UHGV virus genome: UHGV-0174141
Strand: one strand, 5' to 3'
Source: a virus
DNA: 50,880 nt
Shown here one piece after another: positions 6,001 to 9,000 of the stretch. The position numbers were made by a program. Numbering within the stretch: position 1 is the first letter of the stretch; every line of letters begins with the position of its first letter.

Positions 6001-9000
6001 AGGGCGGTGGCAATATCCTCGATCTCGATCGCGTCTTGCTGGATGTCGAGATAATTAAAGTGTTTACCCGAAAGGGTTTGAATAAAGCTCATTATTTTCT
6101 CCATACTTTACGCCTGCACAGCGCTGTTTTTTGGGTGTAGGAATCCCTCGCCAGGTGGCGATTAATTACAGGATTACGCTTTAATAAATCCCCTCAACGA
6201 CGGGGATTTAATGGAGAGCAATCAGGCCTTGAAGTTGCCGATAAAGGTTTCTACCGGCTTGCCGTCGAACTTGCCAACCAGCAGATCACGGAACTCATTG
6301 GCGATCGCTTCTTCCAGGGCTTCCAGCTGGACGATACGCAGGACGAATACCGGATCGCTACTTTTGAGCAGGCTATTGCGAAGACTGAAACGACGTTCGC
6401 CCAGGCCCTCATAGGGTACACACTTAAACTCAAACGCTACCGGCATAACCTCTTTACTGCTGGCTTCAATACTTTGCATCAACGATTTCTTACCGCTAAA
6501 GTCACTATCTTCATGGTCGGCTTGAGTTGCCTGTTGGATAGTGACGCGGCGGACAGCTTGCGCAGCCTGGGCGATCGTCATCGTATTGCCGCCAGCATCA
6601 AAGGCCAGCAGATAATCGCTCCAGTCTTCGAGCCACTCAGCGATTTGCTTCTGATTAAGGTGATCGCCGTTGATCGCCAGTAACGCGCGGAAGGGCGCTG
6701 TTTTCTTTAGCTTGATCGAGGCGACGTTATCAGCATGACCAGGGTTGTCCAACGTGCCGATATTGAAGATAGAACGAGCCAGCATGTTATCGGCATCAAT
6801 AAAGCAACGTGCTTTTTCTTCTTCCCGGGCATAAGCGACAGAATAGCGAACGAAATCATCAATGCTGGTCGTGTCCATGGCACCGCGGAAACGGAAACGC
6901 TCAAGAGAATAGCGCTCCAGGCTTTCAACACTGGTATTTTGAGGTAGCAGGGCGGTCGGGCAGGCCAGACCGTGGATATCGTTCAGGTGATACCCGGAAA
7001 GCACGAGGTCTTTAACTTGCTGAAAAGTACCGCTGTCTAACTGAGACATAAAAATTCCTTATTAACTGATTAGCGAAGTGGTATCAGTGAATTTGTACGT
7101 GCGGTTCACTGAGCCGCTTTAAGCTTTCCGTCCACCGTGCCGGTGATACCGAAGAGTTGCCCCTGATCCTCTTGCAGGATTGTGAGCTTGCCACCTTTGT
7201 TAACCCACATTGGTGTTTCGGTGGTGTCCTCCTCCGACGCTTTGCCGCGGGGAGTTGGGGTGCTGTAGTTCAGCTTGTGCTTAATCTTGACGCGCTTCTC
7301 TTCAACAGAGTTGCCCATACGCTCAAAATCAAAGGTGAGGACAACCTTGCCTTTGTTGCCGTTGTTCAGAACGCCGAGCGCGGTGGTATTAAGAGCCGCC
7401 GCAATCTTGTTCATGAATACGCCGGCGTCCAGTTCACCCAGGAAATCGGGCACTACTGTCATGCGATCATTACTCATGGTTTTACCCTCTCGAAAGGCGG
7501 CTGCCACCGCCGGGAATTTCTCCGTACACAACACAGAAGAGCACCTGCGGTTAGGACGCCGCCCGGGTGGATTGGGTAATGAGCCCGTCGCCCGGTGATG
7601 CTCTTGTGTATTGTGTAAAAAGGGCGGTTATCCATCAGAACGTTATCCTCTTCCTCCTTTGGATAGTGGAAAACTGGATAACCGCCAAGACTACACACAG
7701 CACAGTTAACTAGGTTGTGGCGGTGGTGCCTCCACCTGCCGGGTTAAGCCATAACCGGCGACGTACACTGCCCGGAAACGCATTCATTGAACGGGGTTGG
7801 CTCGTCACGTGCGCATAGCCGCAATTACCACAACGAAGAGAGCACTGCCGGTGTCCGAATCGAACGGACCTTTTCCCTGCCCATCACCAGATATAGAACT
7901 ATCCTGGCGTCTGGAATCGAACCAGACTCTGTGCCTTGCTCGTCAATGCCCTCATCGTTGTGCGCTGTGGTGACGGGATTTGAACCCGCATAACGTCCGG
8001 CCGGCCGCATGAGATAACCTGTGTTGCGAACATTGGTTAGTGCTCAACTCCCCACATAAGGGGCGCTCTATCCATTTGAGCTACACCACAACGGTAAGAG
8101 CACTGCCGCCACCCCTTGCGGGATAACCCGTCTATCTGCCTGGCGGTAGGGCGTTTCCTGGCATCTTCAGTACTCTTTCCTGTTGTGTCCCGGACTCTTC
8201 CCGGGGGTCACACCTTTTCGCCGCGCTGGTGGGGCGCACGTCGTGCCTGAAACACTTGGCTTGCACATTCCAGTTGTCCGGATAGCGCATGGAACTTCAA
8301 GGGAACCATCCGGGCTGCTAACGCTGCATGTGCCATACAACGGTTGTGAATATTGCCGTTCACAACTGGAAGCGCACTCCTTCAGTTACAAACCGATCCC
8401 CACGACCGATGGAAGATGGAATGCGCTTTCATGTTGTTTACGATTCATCTACCCCGGTCCGGCGGCGCCACCTCGCCGGGGCAGATGCAAAGGATCGTTA
8501 CGCGATCATTCGGCTTGTTGGTATGGCCGGAAGTATCAAGTCCCGACATCGCGGATTCTGCTTCTCCGCCCCGATTTCACCCCCGCTATTGTTTAGCGCG
8601 CAAACCGAGAAAATCGCCTTCAACGCTGTCGGCTTTCGCCATGTTCGATCAGGAATCTTCGGGCGGGGCGCCGGCGACCAACCGGCACAACCCCTACAGT
8701 ATTAATCCAGGCTTACTGGACCCCCGACGCCGTGGGCTAAACGGCTGCTGTATGTCGGGTGAGTTTCTGTTGCTGGTGGTCAATCCAGCTCCGCAACCCC
8801 TCCCGAAGACACCTGTTTCAAATCAAAACTTCAAATTACGCACCAGAGGGGCTGCCGTTGAGCCGCCTGACATTTGAACTTTGATACGGTTTACTGATGG
8901 TTTGCTACGTTCTTCGCCAGTAAAGCTATTGAATGTACACAGCCCCAGAACTAAACGAGGGACGCCGCGTAAAATTACAATTCCTCCTGCTTTTGGTAGC

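Follow-up and report, generated by a model that had tools for sequence, protein, structure and literature searches.

Why does a sequence with the arms of a transfer RNA (tRNA), and with a long insertion among them, lie beside the repressor gene of a prophage? The question is raised by the virus genome UHGV-0174141 (50,880 nt; this whole stretch is called the window here), a lambdoid prophage with an immunity region and an early-left (pL) region. An earlier, sequence-only reading described, within 7845–8090, a tRNA-like element on the minus strand (8090–7962), followed by two tandem fragments that resemble a T arm with a 3'-acceptor strand. It offered two explanations, integration events into a phage-borne tRNA-like gene or a phage-encoded structured RNA. 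The analysis presented here supports the latter. Judged from folds and from the comparison of homologues, the region contains two modules, the tRNA-derived U2 (8093–7963) and U3 (7962–7829), which has two T loops. They belong to a mosaic array that forms the ~1.3-kb untranslated leader of the predicted pL transcript. All features are on the minus strand unless stated otherwise, and module boundaries are accurate to within a few nucleotides.

The tRNA-derived module U2 and the two-T-loop module U3

The Rfam tRNA model (RF00005) matches 8090–7965 with 40 bits, above its gathering score of 29 (E 4.6e-05 over the whole window). The match spans model positions 1–71, and 68 nt stand where the model expects 15. 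The length of U2 is 126 nt by the Rfam span and 131 nt for 8093–7963. The minimum free energy (MFE) fold of 8093–7963, calculated from the single sequence, is tRNA-like (z −2.7). The acceptor helix consists of 10 bp (8093–8084 with 7972–7963) and is followed by the D arm (8081–8065). The position of the anticodon arm is taken by a hairpin, hp1 (8063–8050), which has 4 bp and the 6-nt loop UUAUGU. Downstream of it are a long interrupted arm (8046–8010) with the 7-nt loop UUCGCAA at 8030–8024, the hairpin hp2 (8008–7993), which holds GGCCGGCC at 7999–8006, and the T arm (7989–7973). The long arm and hp2 correspond to an insert of ~56 nt that fills the variable region.

U2 keeps U8, A14, the GG of the D loop (G18/G19-type), A21 and the T loop UUCRAAU, so that a tRNA elbow should form. 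In these nucleotides, in the acceptor stem and the D and T arms, and in the order of the arms, it is like tRNA (RF00005; phage tRNA-Arg(UCU)) and has the features of a cloverleaf. It differs from tRNA in its length, which lies outside the tRNA range of about 73–93 nt, in its insert, in its anticodon region and in its 3' end. The CCA that enterobacterial tRNA genes encode is absent: GCG CAC... comes after the 3' strand, both in the window and in the further variants that were inspected. At the canonical position of the anticodon arm there is no 5-bp stem with a 7-nt loop. In the U2 homologues, hp1 has 4–5 covarying pairs and a loop of 4–6 nt (UUAUGU in the window; UGAA, AGAU and AGCA elsewhere). 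The sole 7-nt loop of U2 tops the 11-bp interrupted arm in the variable region, and just two pairs close it before an internal loop. It reads NU-CAU-AA in 17 variants and UU-CGC-AA in 8, the window among them. Since the anticodon loop is lost and a two-hairpin insert of 56 nt is gained, U2 cannot decode. ARAGORN calls zero tRNAs anywhere in the window, U2 included. Two further candidates were rejected. An encoded CCA in the stand-alone U2 variants (L100 type) fell once the acceptor pairing was re-read, and a hidden canonical tRNA, to be revealed by removal of an "intron", was dropped on account of the two pairs under the 7-nt loop.

A pattern made from the U2 insert matched 33 viral contigs, and 25 distinct U2 variants were compared. 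The same pattern is seen in two species genomes, a Pseudescherichia metagenome-assembled genome and Citrobacter, in a species-genome scan that says little on taxonomy. The P1-like Cronobacter phage JK004 has a homologue, insert included, with 81% identity. Seven helices are common to all 25 distinct phage variants. Paired nucleotides occupy 99.6% of the cells, compared with 38–53% when the partners are slid by 1–3 columns. Variation on both sides is observed in 16 of the 37 pairs, a level reached in none of 500 shuffles. A covariance model of U2 scores the window copy at 172 bits and detects no other copy there, and it cross-matches genuine phage tRNA-Arg genes at 26.7 and 17.7 bits. When the tRNA-Arg of Salmonella phage SPN9TCW is aligned to this model, hp1 falls on the anticodon arm, and the long arm and hp2 appear as an insertion in the variable region. 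Taken together, these features make U2 a tRNA derivative under selection for a shape that does not decode.

U3 is closed by a 19-bp stem, 7962–7944 with 7847–7829 (MFE −54.9, z −5.4). Inside the stem are the T-loop hairpin a (CTGGTTCGATTCCAG, 7925–7911), the variable hairpin b (7907–7887) and the T-loop hairpin c (GTCCGTTCGATTCGGAC, 7869–7853). Hairpins a and c carry canonical T loops, and the hairpins are joined by conserved purine-rich linkers. The exact T-loop consensus GGTTCRAWTCC occurs just twice in the window, at 7986–7976 in U2 and at 7923–7913 in U3. The sequence 7962–7829 matches phages of Klebsiella, Salmonella, Escherichia (Stx2a phages included), Citrobacter and Edwardsiella, and it is also matched in 83 of 5426 complete E. 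coli genomes. The invariant U3 core GATGAGNGCATTGACGAGCAAGG retrieved 87 viral contigs from IMG/VR, which contain 40 distinct full-length variants, and RNAalifold gives one common fold for all 40. The closing stem in this fold is composed of 7+10+2 bp, CACAACGAUGAGRGCAUUG with CAGUGCUCUCUUCGUUGUG. Pairing is maintained in 98.6% of the cells, against 37–52% with slid partners. All four pairs of hairpin b covary (10–21 double changes each), and the total of 78 double-change cells was matched in none of 500 shuffles. On this alignment, U3 is read as one conserved RNA, a junction of three hairpins. G-U pairs are frequent in the stems (for example, UG is found in 34 sequences at U3 columns 19–120). 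Because of these G-U pairs, and because the T- and D-loop consensus sequences are all in the minus sense, the folds belong to the pL transcript, not to double-stranded DNA or to the opposite strand.

The sequence-only reading is thereby upheld in its description of U2, as a minus-strand sequence with acceptor, D and T arms and as a non-standard tRNA with a long insert, and the two T-arm-like hairpins that it placed downstream are hairpins a and c of U3. The check by tRNA-finding tools gave a divided answer, with an Rfam call above the gathering score but no call from ARAGORN. The "3'-acceptor" parts of the two fragments turned out not to be orphan acceptor strands. They are linker or closing-stem sequence of the conserved U3 fold. 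As both T-loop hairpins are contained in one conserved, covarying fold, they are not integration leftovers. A related motif was also said to precede each T-arm fragment. The repetition itself is real: the 23-nt motif GGCAGTGCTCTYWYCGTTGTGGT is found exactly twice in the window, at 8107–8085 and 7849–7827, and 0 copies are expected from 100 shuffles. Its assigned place is not. The first copy, GGCAGTGCTCTTACCGTTGTGGT, which contains GCUCUUAC, runs from the 3' strand of the neighbouring module U1 into the 5' acceptor strand of U2, and the second, GGCAGTGCTCTCTTCGTTGTGGT, runs from the 3' strand of U3 into the 5' strand of the next module, U4.

The pL leader array and its mosaicism

The repressor gene of the window is of the cI type (9809–9177), and cro (from 9913) and cII (from 10139) are on the plus strand with a gap of 22 nt. 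A pL-like sigma-70 promoter (TTGACT, 16–17 nt, TAATAT; 9106–9078) was found by a consensus scan just past the repressor-gene terminator, left of the cI-type gene. The count of promoter-like sites is not above that in shuffles, and its position is thus the main argument for pL. From this position, it would drive transcription of the entire array in the minus sense. Leftwards from 7477, the ATG of the yfdP-like gene, lie the yfdP/Q/R-like early-left genes. Between pL and this gene is a single unsupported open reading frame (ORF) of 70 codons (9035–8826), directly after pL, whose product matched no PHROG family. Its arginine-rich N-terminus is MNSAQRRKAYRKLPK, and it sits where lambda has N. As no PHROG family was matched, its identity as an N protein was dropped. 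The rest of the pL leader, ~1.3 kb, is without a convincing ORF, and the features at 7845–8090 fall inside this untranslated part. The closest phage record is Klebsiella phage Kp4866-6 (98% identity).

Two kinds of modules alternate in the leader. Long-stem modules (H0, U1, U3 and U5) start with CAYAAC, end with GUUGUG and have closing helices of 17–20 bp. The tRNA-shaped modules (U2 and U4) are closed by GUUGUGG...CCACAAC. GUUGUGG can pair either with the upstream CACAAC, in a long stem, or with the downstream CCACAAC, in a tRNA shape, so that the outer pairs compete. The motif CAYAAC/CGCAAC is seen in three settings: the 5' ends of the long stems, the 7-nt loop of U2 (8024–8030; UCAUAAC or UCGCAAC) and the core of U5 (~7570–7590; GGGCUCAUWACCC).

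The 70-codon ORF is followed by W (8820–8440), a G+C-rich noncoding segment. Its core, GAACATGGCGAAAGCCGA (8646–8629) ... GCGCGCTAAA ... GGGGCGGAGA, recurs in other pL leaders directly after the promoter (e.g., in L030 and L008). Next is the long-stem module H0 (8437–8362; ACAACAUGAAAGCGCAUUCC ... GGAGUGCGCUUCCAGUUGU; MFE −32.1, z −4.2), whose type is also represented by the module that precedes dicF in E. coli K-12 Qin and by a module of phage mEp390. X5 (8350–8182) is a conserved structured domain of ~170 nt that ends in a CACAAC junction. It comprises a 9-bp hairpin (CGGCAUAUGGCACAUGUGCCG type, around GGCACAUG), the invariant core GGAAUGUGCAAG, CACCAGCGYGGCGA, and the terminal hairpin GGAAGAG. 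Among its 17 variants, 7 of 31 pairs are changed on both sides. X5 also stands ahead of U3 and tRNA-Arg in SPN9TCW. In U1 (8187–8086; MFE −41.8, z −3.8), CACAACAGGAAAGAGUACUG pairs with CAGUGCUCUUACCGUUGUGG; U1 is the first half of a ~225-nt U1+U2 cassette that is absent from the closest relatives.

Downstream of U3 is U4 (7834–7714), a cloverleaf-shaped module closed by GUUGUGGU and GCCACAAC. It has a small first hairpin, a long middle arm and the last hairpin GGUGG-AGGCA-CCACC. Modules of this type are seen directly upstream of a real tRNA-Arg in Klebsiella phage LASTA and twice around dicF in Qin. The array ends with a DicF-like small RNA (sRNA) or intrinsic terminator (7699–7622; GGCGGUUAUCCAG ... 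CUGAUGGAUAACCGCCCUUUUU) and the long-stem module U5 (7617–7525; ACACAAUACACAAGAGCAUC ... GGUGCUCUUCUGUGUUGUGU, with the conserved core CACCGGGCGACGGGCUCAUUACCC; MFE −48.8, z −5.4), which lies just upstream of the yfdP-like gene, the first early-left gene. The position of the DicF-like element is conserved. Its score of 16.5 bits (E 1.4) is below the gathering score of the Rfam DicF family RF00039, 48 bits, and the match is limited to terminator-hairpin architecture and position. The terminator hairpin has a long insertion, and the element stands, with respect to the modules, where dicF stands in Qin. When 7400–9200 was searched with 4227 Rfam families (at the gathering scores and at E<=10), no leader module was matched besides the tRNA core of U2 and the sub-threshold DicF, and no GOLLD, ROOL, RNase P, tmRNA, Y RNA or group I intron was found. 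The candidacy of X5 or U3 as a divergent RNase P RNA or tmRNA, which was based on short similarities (GGAAGAGUCCGGG and GAGCAAGGC), found no support in Rfam or ARAGORN and was dropped.

W, H0, X5, U2, U3, U4 and U5 are combined differently in 84 distinct contexts. Several loci, Kp4866-6 among them, correspond to the window minus the U1+U2 cassette, which is bounded by CACAAC repeats. Some phages have U3 and U4 directly after pL, or U2 alone, at times ending ~10 nt before the first ribosome-binding site. U2 is the lone module of pL leaders right after cI-type repressor genes in three loci (L103, L116 and L117). The slot that separates the long-stem module from the DicF-like element is taken by a U4-type module in L018 and L008, by U2 in L095 and L101, and by a genuine tRNA-Arg(UCU) in SPN9TCW (L001). 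The mature 5' end of this tRNA-Arg is at CGUU|GUGG, within the junction motif. In LASTA (L005), tRNA-Arg(UCU) comes after the U4-type module. As U4-type modules, U2 and a genuine tRNA-Arg can all occupy it, the slot seems to need a tRNA shape. Among L001–L005, ARAGORN calls tRNA-Arg(UCU) in L001 and L005 only and never calls U2; in 77 distinct U3 contexts it calls tRNA-Arg in only four, L006 and L065 included. These facts indicate that the region is no random spacer in related prophages but consists of conserved modules, and that the phage-encoded structured RNA of the sequence-only reading, attested by covariation in the 25 U2 variants, is one module of a larger array.

Two loci show other surroundings. 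LASTA has a self-contained array at ~2570–1921 (minus strand of L005), outside any immunity region. It starts with a terminator, a promoter, an X5-like domain, a long-stem module and a tRNA-like module with a T arm, and it ends with a long-stem module whose stem, GUAGCUCACU, is entirely different, a U4-type module, tRNA-Arg(UCU) and a DicF-like hairpin. In Cronobacter phage JK004 (L004), a loxP-like site, ATAACTTCGTATAATGTATGCTATACGAAGTTA, is at ~2170–2200, ~300 bp upstream of a pair of long-stem module and U2.

In Qin (L094, from NC_000913.3), the order is a long-stem module CAUAACGCGAAAGCGCAUGG...CCGUGCGCUUCCGGUUGUGG (1672–1760), a cloverleaf (1752–1872), dicF, a second cloverleaf (1948–2090) and then dicB. 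These modules are located at 1,649,171–1,649,371 (between ydfC and dicF) and 1,649,447–1,649,589 (between dicF and dicB) of NC_000913.3, and none is annotated. The window and the Qin dicBF locus are alike in having a pL-type operon after a cI/DicA-type repressor, upstream of a DicF-type sRNA. They share the long-stem ends CAUAAC...GGUUGUGG, U4-type cloverleaves (GUUGUGG...CYRCAAC) and the DicF-type sRNA itself, and H0 has the Qin sequence type. Qin differs from the window in having neither U2 nor U3. According to Ragunathan et al. (10.1101/2023.04.14.536235), whose results confirm those of Faubladier et al. 1990, DicF exists as a 190-nt species with a 5' end made by RNase III and as a 53-nt form with a 5' end made by RNase E. 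Counting back 190 nt from the 3' end of dicF (L094 1935) leads to ~L094 1746, in the 3' strand of the closing stem (1739–1758). As this position falls in the closing stem, the Qin long stem corresponds to the RNase III site, within a few nucleotides. By this sequence-based count, the 190-nt species appears to consist of half a stem, the cloverleaf module and DicF. The published work on Qin describes the cleavage sites, not the modules as conserved RNA structures.

A proposed processing model and its alternatives

Probably, U2 and U3 act as "punctuation" for processing in a pL-leader precursor, which would be cut by RNase III, and likely also by RNase P, into stable structured RNAs. The leader would be a polycistronic non-coding precursor transcribed from pL, in which the long stems form during transcription. 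Host RNase III would cut the long stems of U1, U3 and U5, a step that the Qin data support. Such cuts could make GUUGUGG available for closing the tRNA-shaped module next to it. The tRNA-shaped modules U2 and U4 may then be recognised by RNase P and by 3' trimming, as suggested by the retained acceptor, T-arm and elbow geometry and by the interchangeability with real tRNA. The expected products are compact and presumably stable RNAs (U2, the apical domain of U3, and U4), the DicF-like sRNA and a downstream messenger RNA (mRNA) with defined ends. Both the DicF-like sRNA and the downstream mRNA would receive their ends from these cuts, which could thus influence their stability.

Several observations weigh against this model. 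For the window, the expression and cleavage of U2 and U3 are predictions from sequence alone. In the window, leader and trailer pair and so lengthen the U2 acceptor helix to 10 bp, and CCA is not encoded; RNase P usually acts less well on substrates with either feature. The fold of U4 by itself is no more stable than those of shuffled sequences (z −1.2). For Qin, the RNase III site was calculated from a reported fragment length and is uncertain by a few nucleotides. The homologues, mostly from related enterobacterial phages, are fairly close to one another (effective sequence number 1.16), so that the covariation counts include inherited changes. Finally, the apical sequences, ACGAGCAAGGCA and GGGCAGGGAAAAGG in U3 and GAGUUGAGCNCU and UAUCUCAU in U2, are strongly conserved, beyond what pure punctuation would need, and this points to a further function of the RNAs themselves.

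It can be speculated from the last point that the released U2 and U3 are stable tRNA-elbow mimics which act in trans, early in lytic growth, as decoys or sponges, processing being merely their delivery route. The target would be a factor that recognises the tRNA elbow or anticodon-like loops; candidates include RNase P, a defence nuclease directed at tRNAs, and enzymes that modify or aminoacylate tRNA. Phage tRNAs that counter tRNA-cleaving defences are a published precedent. The apical conservation of U2 and U3 well past the needs of base pairing, the elbow nucleotides and T loop kept in U2, the resemblance of its conserved 7-nt loop in the long arm to an anticodon loop, and its occurrence as the sole module of some pL leaders are all consistent with such a role. 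No partner protein co-occurs with the modules, however, and the two pairs that close the 7-nt loop are unlike an anticodon stem. The slot can also be filled by a genuine tRNA-Arg or by the very different U4 type, which fits a structural or processing role better than a specific decoy. Action in trans is thus a possible but unlikely explanation. An alternative that acts in cis is doubtful to a greater degree: the modules, or boxA-like 3' strands in them, would shield the polymerase from Rho or allow read-through of the DicF-like terminator, in the manner of nut, put or rrn elements. The array is placed for this, directly after pL, where lambda has nutL and HK022 has putL. Rho would naturally target an untranslated RNA of 1.2 kb, an intrinsic terminator separates the array from the early-left genes, and no recognisable N protein was found, the product of the ORF at 9035–8826 being without a PHROG family. 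The 3' strand of U1 contains GCUCUUAC (8095–8102), which is identical to the 8-nt core of lambda boxA (rrn boxA is GCUCUUUA), and the LASTA equivalent has GCUCUUUC. The boxA-like string is, however, buried in the 20-bp stem of U1, and other long-stem modules are without one (Qin GCGCUUCC; the LASTA unit with GUAGCUCACU). The same modules are found outside pL operons, beside tRNA-Arg, in LASTA and SPN9TCW, and no second copy lies downstream of pR, where the cro–cII gap is too narrow at 22 nt. Similarity to HK022 putL, which consists of two ~35-nt stem-loops, is no better than in shuffles: the best local alignment has a score of 22, and shuffled sequences average 18.6 and reach at most 27.

Two further explanations remain. 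In the first, which implies no function, U2 would be a phage tRNA pseudogene disrupted by an insertion, and the T-arm hairpins left-over 3' ends of tRNAs, as in the integration events of the sequence-only reading. U2 is clearly tRNA-derived, real tRNA-Arg genes are found in the same arrays of some phages, and close relatives differ in whether they carry the U1+U2 cassette. Decay or scarring is nevertheless very improbable. The insert and the short anticodon hairpin are conserved with compensatory changes from the P1-like Cronobacter phage to lambdoid prophages, and the two T-loop hairpins of U3 are kept with their linkers and the 19-bp stem as one unit in 40 sequences, again with compensatory changes. 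Besides, the region is internal to the prophage, beside the repressor gene and not at a prophage end. It is hardly credible, too, that the modules are DNA-level cassettes, marked by inverted CAYAAC/GTTGTG ends much as integron cassettes are by attC sites, which a site-specific recombinase moves and whose folds are those of single-stranded DNA. Short conserved inverted repeats do flank every module, modules are shuffled between phages, and U1+U2 is bounded by a direct repeat of CACAAC. But the G-U pairs would be A-C mismatches on the other strand, so that the fold is strand-specific and matches the transcribed sense, and the T- and D-loop consensus sequences and the real tRNAs all have the orientation of the promoters. 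The attC consensus RYYYAAC/GTTRRRY is not matched by the ends, no recombinase is associated with the arrays, and homologous recombination at conserved junctions is enough to explain the shuffling.

Relation to known RNAs and implications

Non-decoding tRNA-like RNAs are known from other systems. Those of plant mitochondria, the t-elements, reportedly take part in the tRNA punctuation of organellar transcripts. Like U2, they are tRNA-like structures in polycistronic transcripts, and they can serve as end-defining signals for RNase P and RNase Z. They differ in belonging to another domain of life; in the leader array, the tRNA-like modules alternate with RNase III-type long stems, and the non-tRNA parts are strongly conserved. 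The "species 1" and "species 2" RNAs of the phage T4 tRNA cluster and the TMER tRNA-hairpin units of murine gammaherpesvirus 68 are viral non-decoding tRNA-like RNAs, co-transcribed with tRNAs or hairpins and freed by host tRNA-processing enzymes. Hosts, enzymes and architectures differ from the present case.

In the bacterial Y RNA YrlA, the 5' end pairs with the 3' end in a long stem around a tRNA-like domain that has a T arm. Phages encode some of these RNAs, and the YrlA of M. smegmatis is cut by RNase P (Chen et al. 2014, PMC4201824). Unlike in YrlA, the Rsr-site motif GNCGAAN0-1G is absent from the stems of U1 and U3 (U3 has AACGAUGAG). No Rsr (Ro60/TROVE) gene is present among the neighbouring genes scanned, to which this search was confined (cI and the yfdP/Q/R-like genes). 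With neither the motif nor a nearby Rsr gene, identity as a Y RNA was rejected. E. coli K-12, which carries related modules, is not known to have Rsr. GOLLD, ROOL and HK022 put are likewise large or leader-located structured prophage RNAs, GOLLD and ROOL being near tRNAs and put right after pL. Unlike them, the leader modules have no match to these families in Rfam at E<=10, and the array is a mosaic of independent modules, not one fold.

The window also contains an STnc100 sRNA at 22444–22641 on the plus strand (Rfam, 99 bits), which a 2026 preprint (10.64898/2026.05.13.724894) relates to the prophage sRNA PasD. A full-text literature search found no description of the leader modules, and the Pas sRNA preprint concerns other loci. 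Elements for tRNA-like and RNase III processing in phage and organellar RNAs, non-decoding mimics such as YrlA, and the part of RNase III in DicF maturation are known already. The particular module families, their mosaic arrangement, their occurrence on both sides of dicF in K-12 and the replacement of tRNA-like modules by a genuine tRNA seem not to have been described before.

In many temperate phages of enterobacteria, then, the pL leaders have conserved, covarying RNA modules in common, in shuffled combinations. One of these modules is a five-armed tRNA derivative without an anticodon, and another has two T loops. U2, U3, X5, U5, H0/U1 and U4 are candidate RNA families for annotation, and the array provides a model for the maturation of DicF-type sRNAs and early-left mRNAs. 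Should the tRNA mimics prove to work in trans after their release, they would represent a new class of RNA effectors in phages, and the wider array, the modules around dicF in K-12 included, would be a reservoir of exchangeable structured-RNA effectors.

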